A stretch of DNA of 64,000 bases from Thermoplasmatota archaeon (GTDB lineage: Archaea > Thermoplasmatota > Thermoplasmata > SG8-5 > JACRNV01). The DNA lies in NCBI GenBank assembly GCA_040753455.1, contig JBFMEL010000001.1:5810-69809 (forward strand). Reading direction: 5' to 3'. The position numbers were made by a program, and so were the translations under genes. The notes under the pieces were generated by a model. It was not told where the DNA came from. It saw nothing but the letters and a program-made list of their open reading frames with translations, and did not search any database. Below, in pieces: positions 23,920 to 44,691 of this stretch (position 1 is the stretch's first letter; each line of letters starts with the position of its first letter).

Positions 23920-24501
23920 GCAAGCGCATAGCCCATTGATGATAAAAATCTATCGAGATATGGAGATCTGCCCTCTGTGCATAGTATCTCGCATTCCATG
24001 CAACGACCTTTGAGATGTGCATCTCCACCTGCAGGATTCCGTGCCCGACCACTCGTCACCAGCGCATTCCATGCAACGACCTTTGAGAGCAGGTCAACGA
24101 TCCCACGGGCAGGTTTCAGGGCAACATCTTTTTATAATCAGAACCCCTCTTCACCACGCTAGGCTCGACCGGGGCGCTCGGCGTGCCCTTATACACCGAA
24201 ATCGTCGATAGCGGGGGTGACAGCTGAGGGCGGCGTAACCTGCCCTGCACGCGCCCTGTGCTCGACTATGAGACCCTGTCCTGCCGGGCGGGTGGCGGCT
24301 CTGCGGCGCAGCCGGAGGGCGGCGCCCTCTGCCCTGATCGTGGGGAACGGGTCAGGCCCTGACGGGAGCAGCCTAACCACGGATTACCTGCGCTGGCAGG
24401 GTTGCGGGGTCGAGAAGAGCACAGACATCCGCGCGCAGGAAAGGGCGACCACCTCAGCGGCCTAGCTCCCATCATATAATCAACACCAGGCCGCTGATCA
24501 A

Positions 24502-24960
24502 GACCACCACACAGCTACCCAACAGGACAGCTAACCCAGTGGTCGAATCCAGGGCGAGGAAACAATCTCCCATCATATTCTCGCCCTGTTCTCATCAACT
24601 TCCCAACGTTGATAGGACGTGAGGAGCATAAAAGCAAATAGAAAGCACCTCACGTCCGTATCCACGGCGAGGAAACAACCTCCAAGCGTATCCTCGCCGT
24701 GCTGCAAGCAGATAGCAACAACGATAGGACGTGAGGAGCATAAAAGCAAATAGAAAGCACCTCACGTCCGTATCCACGGCGAGGAAACAACCTCCAAGCG
24801 TATCCTCGCCGTGCTGCAAGCAGATAGCAACAACGATAGGACGTGAGGAGCATAAAAGCAAATAGAAAGCACCTCACGTCCGTGTCCACGGCGAGGAAAC
24901 AACCTCACATCATATACTCGCCGTGATAGACCGTGCTAGAATCAGATAGAAAGACCCTCA
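24502..24960. repeat. Modular hairpin-repeat locus 1: X1 element, Y hairpin, then three tandem 112-bp units (24611-24722, 24723-24834, 24835-~24946). Each unit holds an X2 and a Y hairpin.
   Basis: Units 1 and 2 are identical. X2 is ggacgtgagg-N23-cctcacgtcc. Y is (c)acggcgagga-aacaa...-(t)cctcgccgt(g). Confidence 0.7.
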
Positions 24961-25574: not shown

Positions 25575-26783
25575 CTATCGCCCCTTTCTCAACAGGGCTG
25601 CCACCTCGGTGATGATCGCTTCCGCCAGAGCGCTCTTCGATCCCTCGAACTTTGTCTTCCGCCCATCCCTGCGTATCAGGATCGCCCTGGTTTTCGAAGG
25701 GGAGAGATGGCGCAGGTCGTTGGCAACGATCATCTCCAGCCGATGCTCCTTCAGGCGCTCTTCTGCCCTTTTGATCAGCTCTTTTTCTTCAACGCCATAT
25801 TCTGCCTTGAACCCCACAAGGACCCCTTTGTGCCTCTTCCTGAGATGGGAAAGGATCTTCTCCTGCCTTCTCAGCCTCAGCACCATCTCCTCTCTGTCTG
25901 ATGGGGTCTTGCCCCTCGCCTTTTCAGGCGCATAATCAGGGATCGCTGCGGGCACGATGATCGCATCTGCCTTCTTCCCTCTCAGGACCTCCCGTAGCTC
26001 GGCGACTGTTCTTGCCCTCGTGGTCGGGATGAACTGCGGTGCAGGGATATCTCCGGCCATCACTAGTTCGACATCCGCACCGCGCCCGAACCCTTCCACA
26101 GCTATCGCTATCCCTGTCTGGCCAGTAGCAGTGCTCCTCAGCTCCCTTACCGCGTCCCAGGGCTCTGCATAGCCTCCAGCCACCACGAGCAGCCTGCAGT
26201 CCTTCATATCCATGGGTCCCAGGGTTCGAAGGACGTGTGCTACCACCTCTTCAACACTCGCCATCTTTGCCTTGTTCTCAGCCAGTACTGGCTCCAAGAC
26301 CTTGACGCCGATCTTCTCGAGGGCGCGCAGGTTCTCCCTGACAATGGGATGTGAATACATCGAGGAGTGCATCCCGGGCACGATCATCACTGGGATGCCA
26401 GCACCGATGGCTGTCGTAGCCATGGTGGTCACGGGCGTGTCGTCTATCCCGCAGGCGATCTTTGATATGGTGTTTGCAGTCGCAGGCGCGATCAGGAGAA
26501 GGTCTGCTCTGTCTGCCACGTTTCCGCATAGGTCCACGTGCTGCACAGAGCCGTCAAGTTCGAGTATGGGGACATGACCACAGGCAAACCTCACCGCCTC
26601 AGGGTGTATAATCTGCTGAGCAGCGTGGGACATCACTGGATATATATCCGTTCCGTGCCTGATCAATTCTCTAGCAAGCTTCACCACCTCCACGGCGGCT
26701 ATGCTCCCTGTGATCCCCAGCACTATCCTCTTGCCCATGAGCTTCTGGCTCCTCGTTGCTCGGATCTCCACGCTCGGATGCAT
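25575..26783 (-). CDS. coaBC: Bifunctional phosphopantothenoylcysteine decarboxylase / phosphopantothenate-cysteine ligase
   Basis: Flavoprotein motif GITGSIAAV and the C-terminal CoaB region. Start placed at the internal Met, because the ORF track start overlaps the divergent gene. Confidence 0.85.
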   Translation of the reverse strand: MHPSVEIRATRSQKLMGKRIVLGITGSIAAVEVVKLARELIRHGTDIYPVMSHAAQQIIHPEAVRFACGHVPILELDGSVQHVDLCGNVADRADLLLIAPATANTISKIACGIDDTPVTTMATTAIGAGIPVMIVPGMHSSMYSHPIVRENLRALEKIGVKVLEPVLAENKAKMASVEEVVAHVLRTLGPMDMKDCRLLVVAGGYAEPWDAVRELRSTATGQTGIAIAVEGFGRGADVELVMAGDIPAPQFIPTTRARTVAELREVLRGKKADAIIVPAAIPDYAPEKARGKTPSDREEMVLRLRRQEKILSHLRKRHKGVLVGFKAEYGVEEKELIKRAEERLKEHRLEMIVANDLRHLSPSKTRAILIRRDGRKTKFEGSKSALAEAIITEVAALLRKGR

Positions 26784-26988
26784 CACCATCCCCCACAGGA
26801 TAGGAGGATTTATCGTTTTTGATTCCAGTGCTGCGTGGCATGATTTTTTGCCAGCAGGCAACACAGACCTTGATGCAAACGATCTGGCTCATGATTCATA
26901 CCCCAGGACTGTGCAATTCATACCCCAGGACATCGCACCAAAATTTATTTATGCGATTAAAGACATAGAGCCATTAAGGAGGCATATC

Positions 26989-27540
26989 GTGGGCGGATCC
27001 CCGGACAGCTCGACATCTCCCCATACCTGCCCCAGGTGCTCGCGGCCAGTACCGAATGAGGGGCTATGCAATGAGTGCCTCGCGGAGCAGCCTCCTGAGA
27101 AAGATCCGCAGGAGCGCGTTCGAGAGGCTATGGAGTACGTCCAGCACGAGGCTCAGCGTGGGAAGAGGCTGGGGGTTGACCTGGGGGAGATCGAGGACCT
27201 TCTGCTCGGTGCTAAGCTCATGCTCGATGCTGGAAGCTATGAAGATGCACTGAGGCTGATCAATGAGTGCGGCGAGATGGCTGGGGAGCGCATCCTGCAG
27301 TACGAGATGCTCATGAACAGTATCCGAAGATCGGAGAAGAAGATTAAGGACGCTGAGGAATACGGCGGCGATGTCTCTGAGGCACGCACACTTTTAGAAG
27401 CAGCCCAACGGGCACTTCAAGAGTCGGACTACAAGCGCGGCATCAGTTATGCCATCAGGAGCGCCGATGTGGCTGAGAAGGTGAGGCGCCAGTACGACTC
27501 CTGGCGGGTGGAGGTAGGCACCTACCTGAAAGAGAAGTGA
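26989..27540 (+). CDS. Zinc-ribbon hypothetical protein (GTG start)
   Basis: CPRCSRPV...CNEC ribbon followed by a helical charged region. GTG at 26989 is preceded by a TTAAGGAGG RBS. The ORF track start at 26701 would overlap coaBC. Confidence 0.5.
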   Translation: MGGSPDSSTSPHTCPRCSRPVPNEGLCNECLAEQPPEKDPQERVREAMEYVQHEAQRGKRLGVDLGEIEDLLLGAKLMLDAGSYEDALRLINECGEMAGERILQYEMLMNSIRRSEKKIKDAEEYGGDVSEARTLLEAAQRALQESDYKRGISYAIRSADVAEKVRRQYDSWRVEVGTYLKEK

Positions 27541-27587
27541 TATCCAAATAGAAGGCACCTCACGTCTATTTTCGGGCTTGACAGAAC

Positions 27588-27617: not shown

Positions 27618-27691
27618 GGGCCCGTGGGGTAGTCCGGACATCCTTTCGGCCTTCGGAGCCGATGACCCGAGTTCGAATCTCGGCGGGCCCG
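27618..27691 (+). tRNA. tRNA-Arg (anticodon TCG)
   Basis: Manual cloverleaf fold. Acceptor GGGCCCG/CGGGCCC. Anticodon stem TCGGC/GCCGA with loop CTTCGGA. T-arm CCGAG-TTCGAAT-CTCGG. Confidence 0.85.
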
Positions 27692-27729
27692 CTTACCCAC
27701 AACCCTTATAATCCACGCGCGCATACTAA

Positions 27730-27833
27730 TCCCGGCGGGCCCATGGTCTAGCGGTTACAGCTTGTGGTGTTGGCCAGGCAGCCGCAAATGACGGGTGTCT
27801 CACACACACCAGATCTCCGGTTCGAATCCGGAT
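27730..27833 (+). tRNA. tRNA-Val (anticodon CAC) with a ~31-nt intron at a non-canonical position in the D-loop/D-stem region
   Basis: Acceptor GGGCCCA/TGGGCCC. 5' D-stem and loop GTCT-AGCGGTTA (27739-27750). The insert is 27751-27781. Then TGAC-G-GGTGT-CTCACAC-ACACC-AGATC-TCCGG-TTCGAAT-CCGGA. The spliced product is 73 nt. Confidence 0.6.
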
Positions 27834-28215
27834 GGGCCCACATTTCTGTCCCGCAGAAAAAACGCAGCAGAAGAAATGTGGTAGGACGTGAGGAGCATAA
27901 AAGCAGATAGAAGCACCTCACGTCCGTGCCCAGGGCGAGGAAACACTCTCCTATCATATTCTCGCCCTGTTCGGAGCTCTAGGACAGACACAGCAAAAAC
28001 ACAGCAAAAGAAATGTGGTATAGACCACCTCACAGCTAACCAACAGGGCAGCTAACCAAGTGGTCGAACCCACGGCGAGGAAACAAACACACATCATATT
28101 CTCGCCGTGTTCTCAGCAAAAAAGAAACGCTGGTAGGACTACCGCACAACTAACCAATCGTGCAGTTAACCAAGTGGTCCGTACCCACGGCGAGGAAACA
28201 ATCTCTTCAGCCTAT
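27834..28215. repeat. Modular hairpin-repeat locus 2, immediately 3' of tRNA-Val: D hairpin, X2, Y, D-like, X1, Y, X1, Y
   Basis: D is cacatttctg-N-agaaatgtg. X2 is ggacgtgagg..cctcacgtcc. X1 is ggac(t/c)ac..cagctaacc..cagctaacc.agtggtcc. Y is ggcgagga-aaca..-ctcgcc. Confidence 0.65.
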
Positions 28216-28343
28216 CGCCCATCGAAATCACCCGTGCTATTCATTGACGATACCCCGCGCGACAAGGTGATTAAGCACCAGTGCCATATCACTCCACGGT
28301 GATATAAACGACGTATAGAAGGTTCAAGAATACCGCCACCCTC

Positions 28344-28547
28344 TTGATGTTCGGATATCTCTTCATCTTTCAGCTGATCGCATCCAGTTACGTGGCCATG
28401 TACCCGAAGGACCTCCTGGTGGCGCTCGGGCTCCTCATCGGTGTTGGGATGGTCATAGCCGCGGGTTATGGGCTCCTGGGCCCCGATACCAAGCGATCCA
28501 CCCCCTTCTCCCATCCTGCCTGGCGTCCCAAGGGGACACAGGCTTAG
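28344..28547 (+). CDS. Small putative membrane protein (67 aa)
   Basis: Two hydrophobic segments. GC3-rich codon usage like the neighbours. Weak RBS. Confidence 0.3.
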   Translation: MMFGYLFIFQLIASSYVAMYPKDLLVALGLLIGVGMVIAAGYGLLGPDTKRSTPFSHPAWRPKGTQA

Positions 28548-28554
28548 GCACGGC

Positions 28555-31832: not shown

Positions 31833-32240
31833 CTATATGTCGAACAGCACCTCCGCCACCCCTCTCTCCACGTCAACGATTAGCATGTGGTACGTGACAG
31901 CCTTGACCTCCATCCTCAGTGTGTGTTTCTCGGGGTTCATGGGCTCACCCCAGGCGCGGGCAAGCAAACGCTCGCCATCCCTGCGCACCTCGAACCTGGA
32001 GAAGAGGAAGGCGTGCGCGTCCACCAGGTAGATGATCTCTGACAGAAAGCTGTAGAGCATTTCGTATGGTTCGCCAGGCTCCACGCTGATCTCCTTTATC
32101 TCTCTGCCCTCGACGGTCTCAGGGTCGCAGATGATGCTCATCATGCCCAGGGCAGCGCTCTCGAAGATCTCCTCCATGGTGCTGCCATGTGCCCTCACGC
32201 CAACATCTGCGGTGTGCTCTATGATCTCGAAGCGGGGCAT
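31833..32240 (-). CDS. Archease (RtcB ligase activator)
   Basis: MPRFEIIEHTADVGVRAHG is the archease N-terminal signature. 136 aa from the internal Met. Confidence 0.8.
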   Translation of the reverse strand: MPRFEIIEHTADVGVRAHGSTMEEIFESAALGMMSIICDPETVEGREIKEISVEPGEPYEMLYSFLSEIIYLVDAHAFLFSRFEVRRDGERLLARAWGEPMNPEKHTLRMEVKAVTYHMLIVDVERGVAEVLFDI

Positions 32241-32359
32241 CCTGCAGGCTGATACACCATGTGCTGATAACAGTTGCGCAGCGCGCCGCGATGACCCCCG
32301 AGCAAAACCTCGCGCGGATATTCCTGCTCTGGCTCGGATGATGGCGCTGGTCTCACTGC

Positions 32360-34195
32360 TCAGAAGAAGACAGGCGCCTTTCTCAGCCAGTCCACGTCCG
32401 AATTGTAGAGGGCGCGCATGTCCTCCAAGCCAAAGAGCACCATCGCCAGGCGCTCGAGCCCCTGACCCCATGCCATCACCGGGTGTTTGATTCCGAATGG
32501 GGCAAGCACCTCAGGGCGGAACATCCCTGCACCGCCCAGCTCCATCCACCTCCCCGCGTAGAAGGTCTCGACCTCCATGCTGGGCTCTGTGTACGGGAAG
32601 TAGCTGGGACGTATGCGGATCTGCTCGAACCCCATGCGCCTGTAGTATTCTGTGAGTATCCCCTTCAGCATCGCGAGGCTGGCATCCTCCTCCATCGCTA
32701 TGCCCTCCACCATCTGGAACTCCGCCAGGTGCCTTGCATCTATAGATTCTCTGCGGAAGACCCTTCCTATGGTGAATATCCTCACCGGGGGATCGGGATG
32801 CTCAGAAAGGTAGAGGATGCTGTTTACGGTGGTATGGGTCCGGAGGATCGCCTTCGTGGCATCCTCCTCCCTCCAGGCGTATCCCCAGCCCAGCGAGCCG
32901 TCTATGCCTTCTTCGTGGGCTTTCCTCACCTTCTTCACATACCCTTGCATGGGCAGGGGGATGCGGCTCGGTTGCGAAAGGTAGAAGGTGTCCTGCATCT
33001 CCCTCACTGGGTGATCCTGGGGGGTGAAGAGCGCGTCCATGTTCCAGAATGTGGACTGCACATAGCCGAACTCCACCTCGGTGAAGCCCATGGCCATGAA
33101 CGTCTCCCTGATCTTGGCGATGAACCTGCACAGCGGATGGCGCTTCCCGCCCTCGGCTGCTGGAGCATACGTGTCAGGGGCATAGGGTCTGAAACTGAGA
33201 TTTTTCCATGCGCCGGATACTAAGTGCTGCGGGGTGAGCTGGCTCACCTCTGAAACGATCCTCAGTCCTTCCTTTATCAGCGGCTCTGCCGCAGGGGCGA
33301 GGCTGGCCCAGCGCATCACCTCTTCCCTCGTTCTCAGCAGCCCCTGGCGCGACGTCAGCTGCCTCAGCACCACCTCATCGATCTCGCGCTCGTGCAGCTC
33401 CCCCATCTTTCCGAGCAGGGCAATCGTTTCCTCATCTTTCCCCTTGCGCTCGAGCGCCTCCTTCCCCTCCTCAGTGAGCACGAGGATCGTCTCTCCACCC
33501 ACCTTTTCAATCCTTGCCCATCCCTTGCGCTTCAGCCAGCCAACAGCGATGCTCACGTCGTCCTTGGAGAGCCTTGCGGCGGCGCCCAGCTCATCCATCC
33601 TTGCCTTTCCGCGCATCTTGCGCAGCGCCTTGAGCGCCTTTCTCTCTGGGAGGTCGGCTCCTGCCACATGCTTCCTGGCAAGAGAGTAGTAGCGCTCGAG
33701 GGTCTCTGAGATGAGCACGAGCCCTTTCGCCTGCAGCCAGGAGACAGCGTTCATCACCTCCACCTGCGATAGAAGCCCCACATCCCTCTTCTCCTCAGGG
33801 AGCACGGCGAGCTTCGACAGCGCGCTGCTGATCGCAGGCACTGCATCCCCAGTGAGATGCGCGAACCCCTTGCGCTGCAGCGGCACCTCGATACCGACCC
33901 AGGAGGGCAGGCAGCGGCTCGCCAGCACCCGCGTAACCTCCCCTCTGTAGTCCTCCTTTTCCTCGGCGATTATGGTGAGAAGGGCGCGCATGAGCTCGTC
34001 CACCTCGCGCTCCTTGGGCACCCTGCCCGCAGAGCTTTCTAGATCGAGCAGTGCCTGGCGCATCGTTGAGAGATGGGCCGCAACATCCTCCGGGGCAGAG
34101 CTGCGGATGATCTCCCATGGCGTGCCTGTGCCTCCGAGCTTCGAGAGCGCCAGGAGCACGCGCCGTTCGGCGCTGCTCAACTCCTCGACCTTCAT
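32360..34195 (-). CDS. pheS: Phenylalanyl-tRNA synthetase alpha subunit (archaeal/eukaryal type) with an extended N-terminal wHTH-repeat region
   Basis: Class II core FRPEVLAPFGI..WGQGLERLAMV and motif 2 region. Start at the Met MKVEEL. Confidence 0.85.
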   Translation of the reverse strand: MKVEELSSAERRVLLALSKLGGTGTPWEIIRSSAPEDVAAHLSTMRQALLDLESSAGRVPKEREVDELMRALLTIIAEEKEDYRGEVTRVLASRCLPSWVGIEVPLQRKGFAHLTGDAVPAISSALSKLAVLPEEKRDVGLLSQVEVMNAVSWLQAKGLVLISETLERYYSLARKHVAGADLPERKALKALRKMRGKARMDELGAAARLSKDDVSIAVGWLKRKGWARIEKVGGETILVLTEEGKEALERKGKDEETIALLGKMGELHEREIDEVVLRQLTSRQGLLRTREEVMRWASLAPAAEPLIKEGLRIVSEVSQLTPQHLVSGAWKNLSFRPYAPDTYAPAAEGGKRHPLCRFIAKIRETFMAMGFTEVEFGYVQSTFWNMDALFTPQDHPVREMQDTFYLSQPSRIPLPMQGYVKKVRKAHEEGIDGSLGWGYAWREEDATKAILRTHTTVNSILYLSEHPDPPVRIFTIGRVFRRESIDARHLAEFQMVEGIAMEEDASLAMLKGILTEYYRRMGFEQIRIRPSYFPYTEPSMEVETFYAGRWMELGGAGMFRPEVLAPFGIKHPVMAWGQGLERLAMVLFGLEDMRALYNSDVDWLRKAPVFF

Positions 34196-34432
34196 AGCAT
34201 CCCAGCGCAGAAGGACCATACAGATAAATCCTTTTCTGATTCGGGTGCCTATCCTGAGGGGACGCGAGATTCTCGGAACACTGGACATCGATTCCCATCA
34301 CCTACCTCTGCTCACGAAGTAGGAAGTTTCTGAGCGGATAGGGAAGATACGCAGCGGATTATTGTGATCTGGGGATAAATCCCCTGGGTGGAGGAGATCA
34401 AGGAGGGCGCTGTGACCTCTATTTACAAGGCC

Positions 34433-35749: not shown

Positions 35750-35857
35750 CCCGACTTAGCTCAGACTGGCTGGAGCGGCTGACTGTAGTAGGTCATCGGC
35801 AACGCCGATTCAGCTGCTGAAATCAGCAGGTCCCCGGTTCAAATCCGGGAGTCGGGA
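35750..35857 (+). tRNA. tRNA-Tyr (anticodon GTA) with a ~33-nt intron at the canonical 37/38 position
   Basis: Acceptor CCCGACT/AGTCGGG. D-arm GCTC..GAGC. Anticodon stem GCTGA/TCAGC with loop CTGTAG[intron]A. 5-nt variable loop. T-arm CCCGG-TTCAAAT-CCGGG. Confidence 0.65.
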
Positions 35858-35880
35858 TTATTTTATTAGCATATACGAGA

Positions 35881-36320
35881 CTCCTGGATAGGACTACCGC
35901 ACAGCTAACCAACTGGACAGCTAACCCAGTGGTCCGTTTCCGGGAGACGGGATCACATTTCTGTTTGCATCAATCAAGCAGAGAAAGAAATGTGATAGAC
36001 CGCAAGGAGCATAAAAGCAAACAAAAATCACCTTGCGGTCGTGTCTACGGCGAGGAAACAATCTCACATCGTATCCTCGCCGTGCTGCAAGCAGATAGAA
36101 ACACCGATAGGACTACCGCACAATTACCCAATATAACAGTTAACCAAGTGGTCCGTGTCCACGGCGAGGAAACAATCTCACATCGTATCCTCGCCGTGCT
36201 CTCATCATCCTCCCAGCAATGATAGGACGTGAGGAGCATAAAAGCAAGTAGAAAGCACCTCACGTCCGTGTCCAGGGCGAGGAAACAATCTCCCATCATA
36301 TACTCGCCGTGATAGAAGGA
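35881..36320. repeat. Modular hairpin-repeat locus 3, 3' of tRNA-Tyr: X1, D, X2 (variant stem), Y, X1, Y, X2, Y
   Basis: Same element families as loci 1 and 2. The X2 copy at ~36002-36040 has the stem gaccgcaagg/ccttgcggtc with the loop conserved. Confidence 0.65.
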
Positions 36321-36402
36321 GATAGAAACAAAGATAGGCCTCCTGGGTAGCTCACCCAATGAGGGGAGATCCCAATGGCCTCAGAAAATGTGAACCGTCC
36401 AT

Positions 36403-41418: not shown

Positions 41419-44400
41419 ATGTATGGCGATGCAGATAAAGGGATCATGTCAGATTCCGCCACCGGGGCGAAGGGCAAGAAGGGGCAGCAGAAGCACTCCA
41501 GGAAGATCGCGGCGCTCGCTGCAGTTATCGACGCCGCAAGGGCAAAGTTAAAGGAGACGGTGCAGAAACATTCTGGGAAGATCGCAGCACTCGGCGCTGT
41601 TATCGCCGGCGCGGCTGGCGGGTTCGGACTTGTCGGGCTCTTCACTGCAGCGCTGCCGTTCCTCGGTCACAGACTGGTCGGGGAGTTCGCAGCGGCTGTG
41701 GGCGTAGAAGGCCTTGTGAAACTCGGTGAGCGAGCAGTCACAGGCGAGCCTCTGAGAAAAGAGGACCTCAGGACGCTGGAGGAGGCGCAGAGCCGATTGA
41801 TGGAGTTGCTCGCAGACTCAGCGACAGCTACGCAAAACCTGCATGCTCTTTGCGCGCAACTTTTGCAGGAGGAGCAGCTCACCCAGCACCTGACGAGCGA
41901 CATGATCAAAAGCCTTCGCGACGATATAAATAAGCTCAGCGCAGAAAATCAGGAGCAGTTCTCTGAGATCATCGGAAAGCTCGACGCGCTCCAGGAGAAG
42001 CTCGAAGAAGTGCACGAAGAGGTGCGGCGCTGCGGGCTCGTCAGCTTGAAAGAGGAAGTCTCCAGCATCAGCCGGGAGGGTCTAGAAGAGCAGCACAAAA
42101 GATTCGATGAGTATTTTCTGGGCGGAGTCCCGTGGGGCGTAATCGTATACGAGATCGATGTGCGGCGCGAGGTCACGACAAAAATCATCAACAGATTGAA
42201 GGGGGGCAACAGCATGTTGCTCCTCGGCAAGAGTGGCTCCGGAAAGAGCACGATACTGAAGCGCGCGGCGTATCTGTTGTTTCTCGAAGGATACAACGTG
42301 TTTTACAACTGCGGCAGTATCGATGTGGAGCGCGCGTACAGGTTGCTCACGGAGGAAGAGGGTACAAAGGTCGTGGTTGTGGACGATGCTGATCTTCGCT
42401 GGGACGCTATCAAAGCACTGCACGAATGCTGCATAGAGCATGGGCGTACTGACATCGTGATGCTCTTAGCCGAGCGCACGGAGCGGTTCAAGCACGGCAC
42501 GGCAGGCACAGCTATCAAAGAAGAAAAATTGACACTCACCCGTAATGATGTAAAGGAGCTTTGGAGGTCCACTGGTGATGTTGTGCCAGTAAGAGATGAT
42601 GTGATGGACTTCCTCCTCCAGTGGTGCGGCGATGAGTATATCCTCGCCAAGATATACTCGCTGGGTTACACGGGCGATTCAGAAGAACGATTGGAGGAAC
42701 TGGCGCGCACACGGTATGAGGCGCTGAGGGAGTTGCCCCGAAACCTCAGGACACCACTATTTCCTATAGCATGCATGGCTGCGTACGATTGTGCGCTACC
42801 GCGAAGGGTGTTCGAGAGGTTAGGGCATGATGCTGCGGACCTTGAGGAGTTGGCGAGGCGCGGGTATGTATCTATCGAGGACAGTGCCCTGCGGGGCTAC
42901 CACCCGGTGATTGCGAAGAGGTTTCTCCGCTGCTATCTTGAAGGGGGGGCATATGATTTTGTAGATTGCGTTGTGAACCGCATCCTGCCGCGGCTCGGCG
43001 AGGGCGAAGAGAAAGAAGCTGACGCGGGACTGTGTTTCTCGCTGGGAACAAACATTGCTGTGGAGCAAGAAGATAGGATAGAAAAGGACAAAAAAGTGCT
43101 CGAGGTTGCATTGAAATCTCTGGACAGATGTCTCGAACTGACGCCCGACCACGCGGAGGCGTGGAACAACAAAGGCAACACGCTCGATAGCATGGACCGC
43201 TACGAGGACGCGCTCGTTGCTTATGATAAGGCGCTCGCCATCAACACGCAGTTGGCGGAGGCGTGGAATAACAAAGGCACCACACTCCACCATATGCAGC
43301 GCTGTGATGAGGCACTCGTCGCTTATGATATGGCACTTGCACTCAACCCAGACTATGTAGAGGCATGGAACAACAAAGGCACTCTGGTCTCCAACATGCA
43401 GCTGCATGATGAGGCACTAGCCGCTTATGATAAGGCACTTGCACTCAACCCCGACTATGCGGCGGCGTGGAACAACAAAGGTTTCATGCTCATACGCATG
43501 GAGCGCTATGATGAGGCGCTTGCCGCCTGCGACAAAGCGCTCCAGCTCAACTCGCGGTATGTGGAGGCGTGGAACAACAAAACCCTCGCGCTCGCCCACA
43601 TGCAGCGTTGTGATGAGGCGCTTGCCGCCTGCGAGGAAGCGCTCCAACTCAATCCACGGTATGCAGAGGCGTGGAACAACAAAGGCTTCACGCTCGCATG
43701 CATGGAGCGCTATGATGAGGCACTAGCCGCTTATGATAAGGCGCTCGAATTCAACCCGCAACTTGCAGAGGCCTGGAACAACAAAGGCAACACGCTCGCA
43801 CACATGCAGCGGTACGAGGAAGCGCTCGCCGCCCATGATAAGGCGCTCGAACTCAACCCGCAGTTGACGGAGGCGTGGTACAACAAAGGCAACACACTCA
43901 ACCAAATGCAACGCTATGATGAGGCGCTCGCCGCATACGACAAAGCGGTCGAACTCAATCCACAATTTGCGAAGGCGTGGAACAACAAAGGCCTCACGCT
44001 CGCACACGTGCAGCGCTACGAGGAAGCGCTCGCCGCTTATGATAGGGCGCTCGCCATCAACCATCAGCTTGCGGAGGTGTGGTACAACAAAGGCCTCACG
44101 CTCGCACACGTGCAGCGCTACGAGGAAGCGCTCGCCGCCTATGATAAGGCGCTTGCCATCAACCCGCAGTTGGCGAAGGGGTGGGGCGCGCGCGGGCTTA
44201 CGGAGCTGAGTATGGGGAGGTACGAACATGCGGCGTTTGATTCTGCATGTGCGCACTTTCTGACACGCCTTGGGATAGGGCAGGAGAGATTGTTGGAGCC
44301 AACCGCGCGTCAGTTCATGCAGGCTAGCGATGCGCTGCGCGGCACGGGTGCGTTCCACGATGCAGCCATCCTTTACGCTGTGATGGCTTTTGAGAAAAGG

Positions 44401-44691
44401 GCTGAAGTTGCTGCGCCATTGTGGCGTGAACGTGAGAAGATCACACACATACTTGCCCGCTGCATGCTGTACGATATCGTGGGCGAAGCGCTGACCGAGA
44501 TTAAGCCGGCGATGGATGAGGAGCGCAAAGTAATCGAATGGTATGCCCGCAGCTTGGCGGAGAAAAAGGTCCATGAGGAGTTCCGGGAATACCTTTGGGC
44601 GCTGGTGCGCGGCGACGCGCGGCGCGACGCGGCGTTTGCACTTGCCACATTGTACCTGCTCGTGGAAGAAGGCGTGATGGTTTCGCCATAG
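41419..44691 (+). CDS. STAND-type P-loop NTPase: N-terminal TM/coiled-coil region, central NTPase and ~13 C-terminal TPR repeats
   Basis: Walker A LLLGKSGSGKSTILKRAAYLL and Walker B VVVVDDAD. Hydrophobic segment AALGAVIAGAAGGFGLVGLFTAALPFL. The repeated AWNNKGxxLxxMxRYDEALAAYDKAL module is a TPR. The true start is possibly the Met at 41446. Confidence 0.75.
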   Translation: MYGDADKGIMSDSATGAKGKKGQQKHSRKIAALAAVIDAARAKLKETVQKHSGKIAALGAVIAGAAGGFGLVGLFTAALPFLGHRLVGEFAAAVGVEGLVKLGERAVTGEPLRKEDLRTLEEAQSRLMELLADSATATQNLHALCAQLLQEEQLTQHLTSDMIKSLRDDINKLSAENQEQFSEIIGKLDALQEKLEEVHEEVRRCGLVSLKEEVSSISREGLEEQHKRFDEYFLGGVPWGVIVYEIDVRREVTTKIINRLKGGNSMLLLGKSGSGKSTILKRAAYLLFLEGYNVFYNCGSIDVERAYRLLTEEEGTKVVVVDDADLRWDAIKALHECCIEHGRTDIVMLLAERTERFKHGTAGTAIKEEKLTLTRNDVKELWRSTGDVVPVRDDVMDFLLQWCGDEYILAKIYSLGYTGDSEERLEELARTRYEALRELPRNLRTPLFPIACMAAYDCALPRRVFERLGHDAADLEELARRGYVSIEDSALRGYHPVIAKRFLRCYLEGGAYDFVDCVVNRILPRLGEGEEKEADAGLCFSLGTNIAVEQEDRIEKDKKVLEVALKSLDRCLELTPDHAEAWNNKGNTLDSMDRYEDALVAYDKALAINTQLAEAWNNKGTTLHHMQRCDEALVAYDMALALNPDYVEAWNNKGTLVSNMQLHDEALAAYDKALALNPDYAAAWNNKGFMLIRMERYDEALAACDKALQLNSRYVEAWNNKTLALAHMQRCDEALAACEEALQLNPRYAEAWNNKGFTLACMERYDEALAAYDKALEFNPQLAEAWNNKGNTLAHMQRYEEALAAHDKALELNPQLTEAWYNKGNTLNQMQRYDEALAAYDKAVELNPQFAKAWNNKGLTLAHVQRYEEALAAYDRALAINHQLAEVWYNKGLTLAHVQRYEEALAAYDKALAINPQLAKGWGARGLTELSMGRYEHAAFDSACAHFLTRLGIGQERLLEPTARQFMQASDALRGTGAFHDAAILYAVMAFEKRAEVAAPLWREREKITHILARCMLYDIVGEALTEIKPAMDEERKVIEWYARSLAEKKVHEEFREYLWALVRGDARRDAAFALATLYLLVEEGVMVSP

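Follow-up and report, generated by a model that had tools for sequence, protein, structure and literature searches.

What are the hairpin repeats that lie behind the tyrosine transfer RNA (tRNA) gene in this stretch of DNA, and does their conservation mark a functional RNA, a selfish element or neither? The stretch, from now on referred to as the window, is 64 kb long and derives from the metagenome-assembled genome (MAG) of one uncultivated member of the Thermoplasmatota, so that all copies analyzed here are paralogues within a single genome. The repeats are structurally constrained and not random. As to what they are, we favor, with somewhat less than even confidence, the reading that they form plus-strand structured RNA modules which either share the transcript of a stable RNA gene or have a promoter just behind it.

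Three arrays could be identified in the window, named A, B and C, each on the plus strand and directly 3′ of a stable RNA gene: the signal recognition particle (SRP) RNA gene, a pair consisting of tRNA-Arg and an intron-bearing tRNA, and tRNA-Tyr, respectively. The repeat unit consists of a variable first hairpin (X1, X2 or a stem variant of X2), a second hairpin (X3) that is constant and adjoins the first with zero spacer, and an A/C-rich linker of about 22 nucleotides (nt), the linkers being of a few recurring types. The first hairpin has a constant base, in which the lower stem GAUA/URUC (4 bp) is followed by a bulged G and by GAC/GUC, and the tag G(A/G)TAG forms the 5′ foot of every first hairpin, with G(A/G)UA in the lower stem. 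X1 reads GGACUAC...GUGGUCC and contains two CAGCUAACC motifs and an inner 4-bp helix. X2 reads GGACGUGAGG - AGCAUAAAAGCAAAUAGAAAGCA - CCUCACGUCC and shares the loop AGCAUAAAAGCAAAUAGAAAGCA with its stem variant; both forms have a lower stem of 4 bp and an upper stem of 10 bp, separated on the 3′ side by a bulged G, and a loop of 23 nt. X3 (CACGGCGAGGAAACA - N15 - CUCGCCGUG) has an 11-bp stem and an invariant GGCGAGGAAACA. The hairpins are 39-54 nt long with loops of 17-31 nt. The window holds 10 copies of X3, 7 of X2 (one decayed) and 5-6 of X1, and motif matches number 5-6 in the window compared with 0 expected in shuffles. All two-hairpin units adopt this fold of two adjoining hairpins, with z-scores between -5 and -8 (seven sequences), while an X1-only stretch reaches -3.5.

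Array C starts 30 nt past the 3′ end of tRNA-Tyr and shows most of these components in one place, in the order X1, 13 nt that repeat the tRNA-Tyr 3′ end, a further short hairpin named hp0, X2 variant-X3, linker, X1-X3, linker, X2-X3 and a decayed tail. Its features, preceded by a TATA-like box, are as follows.

35861 to 35868, plus strand: TATA-like box TTTTATTA, read from the sequence, 19-26 nt before the first array C hairpin; a candidate promoter element.
35887 to 35940, plus strand: X1 hairpin without an X3 partner, with outer stem GGACUAC/GUGGUCC including a U.G pair and an inner AGCU/AGCU helix.
35940 to 35952, plus strand: CCGGGAGACGGGA, a 12/13 match to the tRNA-Tyr 3′ end CCGGGAGTCGGGA (35846-35858).
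35953 to 35995, plus strand: hairpin hp0, UCACAUUUCU ... AGAAAUGUGA; the same hairpin at 27839-27881 links the intron-bearing tRNA to array B.
35994 to 36045, plus strand: X2 variant hairpin, 78.3 bits with the X2 covariance model.
36046 to 36084, plus strand: X3 hairpin abutting the X2 variant, with an 11-bp stem whose first pair is U.G.
36085 to 36105, plus strand: linker of the first type, CTGCAAGCAGATAGAAACACC.
36106 to 36159, plus strand: X1 hairpin with inner helix AAUU/AGUU, that is, one compensated pair and one U.G relative to AGCU/AGCU.
36160 to 36198, plus strand: X3 hairpin.
36199 to 36220, plus strand: linker of the second type, CTCTCATCATCCTCCCAGCAAT.
36221 to 36272, plus strand: canonical X2 hairpin with upper stem GGACGTGAGG (36225-36234) / CCTCACGTCC (36258-36267).
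36273 to 36311, plus strand: X3 hairpin of the terminal type, with one G.G and one G.A mismatch; array A also ends with a terminal-type X3 (24887-24925).
36311 to 36345, plus strand: decayed distal tail, GATAGAAGGAGATAGAAACAAAGATAGG..., without a significant fold (z = -0.9).

One indication of constraint comes from the X2 variant, whose lower stem is formed by GATA (35994-35997) and TGTC (36042-36045), followed inward by the bulged G at 36041 and an upper stem of GACCGCAAGG (35998-36007) and CCTTGCGGTC (36031-36040) that encloses the loop AGCATAAAAGCAAACAAAAATCA (36008-36030). A sequence-only reading of the window had described this copy, placing it at about 36002-36040 and thus a few bases off, as having an altered stem with pairing kept, and the alignment bears this out: both arms have changed at 4 of the 10 upper-stem pairs, each of which is Watson-Crick. 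Aligned without gaps from canonical to variant, the changes are G-C to A-U, A-U to C-G, U-A to C-G and G-C to A-U, and the two stems are identical at 6 of 10 positions. A fifth double change is found in the lower stem of the X2 copy at 27880, where GAUA/URUC becomes GGUA/UGCC. The loop, said to be nearly unchanged, is indeed identical at 20 of 23 bases between variant and canonical X2, and the single loop substitution claimed for a canonical copy at about 36229-36270 could be confirmed as A to G at 36248 (AAATAG to AAGTAG) in the hairpin at 36221-36272. Covariation is found across the X2 copies of the window: for 14 pairs in 5 distinct copies, all 70 cells pair and 5 pairs are double-changed, a result equalled by 0 of 500 shuffles in a control that does not correct for the relatedness of the copies. 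With the register slid, pairing is 26-49%. The other hairpin types behave likewise, with three double-changed pairs in X1, whose inner helix AGCU/AGCU becomes AACU/AGUU or AAUU/AGUU, and with a switch between CAC/GUG and CAG/CUG in X3.

Neutral tandem duplication without any constraint could in principle produce such arrays, the apparent compensation then being due to hairpin-templated repair (quasi-palindrome template switching) or to chance. Duplication has been very recent in places, as two 112-nt units of array A (24611-24722 and 24723-24834) are identical, the sample of distinct sequences is small (5 X2, 5 X1 and 9 X3), and relatedness is left uncorrected in the shuffle control. We nevertheless consider this explanation improbable, given that a single stem shows four independent double changes and zero uncompensated ones, with more double changes in X1 and X3, that G.U pairs are retained at 5 sites although template switching would yield perfect Watson-Crick palindromes, and that the loops are more conserved than the stems.

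These G.U pairs also bear on the question of which strand is folded. Across the stems of all intact copies, 213 cells are Watson-Crick, 13 are G.U at 5 independent sites when read on the plus strand, 0 are A.C and 5 are other mismatches. Since the 13 G.U cells of the plus strand correspond to C.A mismatches on the minus strand, the stems are kept for the plus strand. The U/G-rich complement of the loops can itself pair and the folding of whole units does not favor the plus strand, so that it is the wobble pairs of the stems that separate the strands. A function at the level of double-stranded DNA fits these data poorly. Arrays of hairpins or cruciforms might act as a DNA-level or co-transcriptional barrier that shields highly transcribed, head-on RNA genes at their 3′ ends from converging transcription or replication, comparable to the fork barriers behind eukaryotic ribosomal RNA genes. 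The arrays do hold multiple repeated units, and with nearly all protein genes between 18.5 and 41 kb on the minus strand and the four RNA genes all on the plus strand, they lie where opposing traffic meets an RNA gene. However, a double-stranded binding site needs its sequence kept, which the variant X2 stem with only 6 of 10 positions shared does not do, and G.U at 5 sites argues for single-strand folding of one strand. We consider a barrier role highly improbable.

The loops follow a different rule from the stems. Their 5′ halves, AGCATAAAAGCA and GAGGAAACA, are the most sequence-conserved parts of the hairpins and are invariant across copies while the stems differ; in X2, the first 12 loop bases are invariant in 7 of 7 copies. 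The sequence-only reading had held that structure rather than sequence is conserved, which is true of the stems and does not apply to the loops. It had further proposed a functional RNA or a protein-recognized hairpin in place of random repeats. Non-randomness is well supported by compensatory changes in all three hairpin types. A functional RNA product is not established, because all copies are paralogues from one genome without an orthologue and because bacterial palindromes of the repetitive extragenic palindromic (REP) type also keep their stems by compensation. Two known protein-binding motifs suggested for the loops do not fit: there are neither tandem G.A pairs nor C/D boxes, as would be expected for an L7Ae k-turn, and, in contrast to Sm sites, the loops contain few U. 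An antisense role of the loops against the adjacent SRP RNA or tRNAs was also considered and dropped, with 1 of 32 comparisons reaching z = -2.2, which is chance level.

Further evidence is provided by the placement of the arrays. The stable RNA genes, arrays A and B, and one decayed X2 copy are located as follows.

24157 to 24467, plus strand: SRP RNA gene, 153 bits with Rfam.
24496 to 24957, plus strand: array A, 3′ of the SRP RNA gene, consisting of X1-X3, three X2-X3 units and a decayed unit.
27533 to 27570, plus strand: decayed X2 copy, GAAGTGAT...AAATAGAAGGCACCTCACGTC, with AAATAGAAGGCACCTCACGTC as its 3′ half, read from the sequence.
27618 to 27692, plus strand: tRNA-Arg.
27737 to 27841, plus strand: intron-bearing tRNA with a 30-nt intron, called Ala(GGC) by ARAGORN with introns allowed.
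27839 to 28205, plus strand: array B, which is attached to the intron-bearing tRNA at its 3′ end and consists of hp0, X2-X3, X1-X3 and an X1 with a truncated X3.
35750 to 35857, plus strand: tRNA-Tyr(GTA) with a 33-nt intron, 50.5 bits with the Rfam tRNA model and called by ARAGORN with introns allowed.

tRNA-Tyr was missed by default ARAGORN because of its 33-nt intron. The tRNA at 27737-27841 was missed by both default ARAGORN and the Rfam tRNA model, and its identity as Ala(GGC) is uncertain, its D-arm being odd. At each of the three stable-RNA loci that were found in the window, an array stands directly 3′ and in the same orientation, and no array occurs elsewhere; motif scans and the X2 covariance model located X1/X2/X3 units at no fourth place in the 64 kb. 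Each array sits between the 3′ ends of a plus-strand RNA gene and a minus-strand protein gene, and of the roughly 8 convergent intergenic regions the arrays occupy exactly the 3 that bear an RNA gene, an outcome expected by chance in 1 of 56 cases.

Signals around the arrays are compatible with plus-strand transcription. TATA-like boxes precede arrays A (ATATAAT, 24475) and C (TTTTATTA, 35861), 16-29 nt before the first hairpin; they are similar in form to the boxes of the SRP RNA, tRNA and PurP genes, and the spacing at array C best fits that of the SRP box. Array B has no such box and is joined to its tRNA through hp0: it starts inside the last bases of the tRNA at 27737-27841, the 5′ arm of hp0 overlapping the tRNA end. 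Oligo-T is the archaeal termination signal. In the arrays, A makes up 32-34% and T 16-20% of the plus strand, which has no T4 run inside them, the sole T4 run on the plus strand of the array region being the box TTTTATTA, while the minus strand has T4-T6 runs.

The 3′ ends of the RNA genes show further peculiarities. The copy of the tRNA-Tyr end at 35940-35952 sits 83 nt downstream of the true 3′ end, and the resulting direct repeat brackets the TATA-like box and one X1; judged by its sequence, it resembles an attachment-site (att) type or target duplication. Further, the 12 nt CTCCCATCATAT run across the 3′ boundary of the SRP RNA gene (24466-24477) and recur in two X3 loops, of which they make up the 3′ half (24566-24577 and 36289-36300). 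The SRP RNA gene may have an X3 fragment joined to it, and the TATA-like ATATAAT would come from this fragment. One could read both features as scars of integrative elements, with att-like duplications and internal fragments left at the 3′ parts of stable RNA genes and later duplicated, and tRNA genes are indeed classic integration targets. However, the same units stand behind three different RNA genes, yet tyrosine integrases are site-specific, a duplicated RNA-gene end is present at only 1 of the 3 loci, no integrase or other element gene lies nearby, and viral, phage or plasmid matches are absent. Since the compensatory stem changes and conserved loops would also be left unexplained, integration scars appear quite improbable to us.

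The main rival to an RNA function is that the arrays are selfish or neutral modular palindromic DNA, similar to the REPs and bacterial interspersed mosaic elements (BIMEs) or to pneumococcal BOX elements, whose hairpins spread and duplicate harmlessly in spacers between converging 3′ ends. Stems would then be kept either because a mobilizing enzyme reads the hairpin in single-stranded DNA or because hairpins stabilize or terminate neighboring transcripts. Many properties of the arrays agree with this: they are mosaics of a few hairpin types with recurring linkers, each of them lies between convergent genes, and their minus-strand T4-T6 runs could terminate the convergent protein genes. Turnover is also evident. 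The identical 112-nt units of array A (Tandem Repeats Finder period 112, 2.8 copies, 97% matches) are the result of very recent duplication or conversion, and short-read assembly may have collapsed their true copy number; the distal array ends hold truncated or chimeric units; and the decayed X2 copy at 27533-27570 overlaps the stop codon of an uncharacterized open reading frame (ORF, 26701-27540), and is followed by TATTTTC, upstream of the tRNA-Arg promoter. The lack of orthologues in relatives points in the same direction. On the other hand, a scan of 35 of the about 52 proteins predicted in the window turned up no gene for a transposase, integrase, reverse transcriptase or Cas protein, and the arrays avoid the five convergent spacers without an RNA gene. 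Together with the differences from REPs described below, this leads us to regard selfish or neutral DNA as unlikely, though a serious contender.

We therefore return to the reading of the arrays as plus-strand structured RNA modules. It is based on compensated pairing, wobble pairs that exist only on the plus strand and loops conserved over stems, as well as on the exclusive co-oriented placement behind RNA genes, including a fusion to a tRNA end, and the absence of plus-strand oligo-T. The arrays would be transcribed with the stable RNA genes, array B through its fusion to the tRNA via hp0 and arrays A and C from their TATA-like boxes, and units might be freed by RNA 3′-end processing or other endonucleolytic processing. 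The single-stranded A/C-rich loops may be contacted sequence-specifically by a protein or nucleic-acid partner, in which case the stems would need only to pair. The constant base and X3 look like a handle and X1 and X2 like exchangeable heads. A more specific version, which we regard as rather unlikely, is that the arrays are polycistronic genes for a hitherto unrecognized class of small structured RNAs in archaea, which are carried along by tRNA and SRP RNA transcription units, are released by tRNA-processing enzymes and combine a constant protein-binding handle (bulged-G base and X3) with exchangeable apical loops (X1 and X2). If true, archaea would have their own equivalent of tRNA-linked small-RNA clusters or of multi-hairpin RNAs that act as protein sponges.

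A number of observations weigh against an RNA function. The folding energy of whole units is no better on the plus than on the minus strand, and a start set by the TATA-like box behind the SRP RNA gene would fall some 8 nt into the first hairpin. All three arrays are found within 12 kb of each other, so that local spread could inflate the association with RNA genes. The truncated, chimeric and decayed copies and the identical tandem units indicate a fast turnover typical of selfish or neutral repeats. All copies are paralogues in one MAG. No candidate for a partner protein is evident among the neighboring genes, which are housekeeping or uncharacterized. Searches for relatives were likewise negative. 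In Rfam, at the gathering score and up to E = 10, no family matched the hairpins; only the SRP RNA and tRNAs pass, and nothing in the arrays has E < 0.8. The exact X3 pattern gave 0 matches in Joint Genome Institute (JGI) metagenomes, and a pattern of the X2 loop and stem top gave 2 chance matches there within a coding sequence. Viral contigs scanned for the X1, X2 and X3 motifs yielded chance matches only, and blastn against plasmids and phages yielded none. Syntenic contigs of the closest available relatives were chosen by homologues of the flanking genes (amino-acid identity 64% and 68% for the M29 aminopeptidase, 58-65% for CoaBC and 77-86% for PurP) and carry neither a tRNA or SRP RNA gene nor an array at the matching places; Rfam, the X2 covariance model and motif scans, each applied to part of these loci, were negative, and two short contigs were judged by called genes only. 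A loop-only pattern, AGCATAAAAGCARNYARAA, is too short and too A-rich to be informative, with 119 chance matches in bacteria in the genome collection. On present data and as judged by sequence, the repeat family is lineage-specific.

The genes surrounding the arrays are ordinary chromosomal genes, encoding an NYN-domain protein, CoaBC, a GvpD/KaiC-like ATPase, PheRS, archease, PurP and an M29 aminopeptidase. The aminopeptidase, CoaBC and PurP of the window show 100% identity to those on record for the MAG, one of which has the accession MEW5936232.1. Between 18500 and 41400, protein genes are nearly all found on the minus strand and all four stable RNA genes on the plus strand; the sign of the GC skew flips near 17 kb and 41 kb. 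The gene for archease, which serves the tRNA-splicing ligase RtcB as a cofactor, is found at 31833-32471 (minus strand); it adjoins the gene for the PheRS alpha subunit (32360-34288, minus strand), and the intron-bearing tRNA-Tyr is about 3 kb away. Array B, with its truncated last X3, is separated from the GvpD/KaiC-like ATPase gene by approximately 340 nt (28215-28554), which contain only a doubtful 100-codon ORF without a family match. Two minus-strand ORFs cross the arrays, one at 24595-24861 (88 codons) and one at 36045-36359 (104 codons). A coding reading of both was dropped, as the 112-nt period is not a multiple of 3; long minus-strand ORFs run through the arrays most probably because the plus strand is T-poor, which leaves few stop codons on the complement. 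Further downstream, a plus-strand gene (41419-44691) encodes a 1090-residue protein with a novel-STAND NTPase domain and about 10 TPR repeats, the TPR-coding DNA of which appears as a 102/306-nt tandem repeat (43153-44184).

How the arrays relate to known systems can be stated in part by exclusion. They are not box C/D small RNAs (sRNAs), as no RTGATGA and a single CTGA occur on the plus strand of any array and Rfam C/D families score at most 15 bits (E > 0.8). Nor are they H/ACA sRNAs, the stems being continuous over 10-11 bp without a pocket and X3 being followed by CTG, TTC, CTC or ATA rather than ACA, again without an Rfam match. Integron attC sites were dropped because RYYYAAC ... GTTRRRY cores are absent, save for one chance pair inside one X1 type (X1_A), and because no ORF cassettes lie between the hairpins. 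Self-cleaving ribozyme repeats, such as the hammerhead, do not apply, with no CTGANGA on the plus strand and no ribozyme family in Rfam up to E = 10. A type III toxin-antitoxin system with a ToxI-like RNA would have its RNA repeats directly upstream of a co-oriented endoribonuclease toxin gene and is not supported either, since the genes that follow the arrays converge on them; array A does adjoin the NYN-domain gene, which lies on the other strand, and there is no such neighbor at arrays B and C. The arrays resemble CRISPR arrays in that the partly palindromic 39-nt X3 recurs every 112-114 nt on one strand. However, the intervening 73-75 nt are repeated X1/X2 hairpins and linkers and not unique spacers, the X3 copies vary in their loops, and there are no cas genes among the neighbors.

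Hairpin RNAs linked to tRNAs are known from murine gammaherpesvirus 68, with its units of tRNA-like and microRNA-precursor (pre-miRNA) elements, and from dicistrons of tRNA with small nucleolar RNA (snoRNA) or with C/D sRNA. In these systems, tRNA transcription and 3′ processing give rise to stem-loops that lie directly 3′ of a tRNA, a placement shared by array B, which starts in a tRNA end. Those RNAs are Dicer/Argonaute substrates or C/D-box guides, whereas the arrays lack C/D boxes, are built from two-hairpin modules with large loops, carry their own TATA-like box in 2 of 3 cases and in one case stand behind SRP RNA. The BOX elements of Streptococcus pneumoniae are modular boxA-boxB(n)-boxC repeats. 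As generally described, they are also intergenic and lineage-restricted, composed of few subunits of which one is tandemly reiterated, and predicted to form stable stem-loops as RNA. They differ in being scattered near protein-coding genes, in having defined A and C end modules, in having no link to tRNA or SRP RNA, and in sequence, where there is no similarity.

REPs and BIMEs show the most extensive parallels and also the clearest differences. Both they and the arrays are short hairpin-forming intergenic repeats of a few types, organized in mosaic clusters with fixed linkers, often behind genes or between convergent genes, with stems kept by compensating changes. REPs generally have small variable loops and conserved stems; here, it is the 17-31-nt loops, with their invariant 5′ halves, that are the conserved part. 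REPs measure 20-40 bp (PMC3733652), compared with hairpins of 39-54 nt in the arrays. The G(A/G)TAG tag at the 5′ foot recalls the short purine-rich GTAG tag of REPs (PMC3733652), and 16 of the 94 plus-strand GATAG motifs in the window fall within 1405 nt of arrays. However, the terminal GTAG (or CGTC) of REPs is unpaired, whereas GAUA here pairs with URUC and covaries, with GAUA/UAUC changing to GGUA/UACC or GGUA/UGCC. Head-to-tail reiteration of REP clusters together with flanking DNA has been described (PMC3733652) and is matched by the tandem units, while BIMEs alternate in orientation (PMC2817692) and all 23 of 23 hairpins here are direct and on the plus strand. REPs follow protein-coding operons genome-wide and the arrays, within the 64-kb window, follow only stable RNA genes. 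REPs are further linked to REP-associated tyrosine transposases (RAYTs, Y1/HUH), of which none is present among the 35 window proteins scanned, and PMC3733652 and PMC2817692 describe REP/RAYT systems from bacteria.

Our literature searches returned nothing pertinent on archaeal tRNA-linked hairpin repeats, archaeal REPs or tRNA-trailer sRNAs, and we found no account of repeat arrays for which an attachment specific to tRNA and SRP RNA gene 3′ ends is described. If the arrays encode RNAs, they would constitute a new modular class of archaeal small RNA that uses stable RNA genes as expression platforms. Should they instead be selfish DNA, archaea would possess an analogue of REPs and BIMEs with an unusual target preference, pointing to an unrecognized mobilizing activity. 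Either way, they provide a clean within-genome case of compensatory evolution. To our knowledge, intergenic structured repeats such as REP/BIME, BOX and enterobacterial repetitive intergenic consensus (ERIC) elements are well described in bacteria and hardly at all in archaea; the arrays found here resemble these known repeats and differ from them in design and placement.

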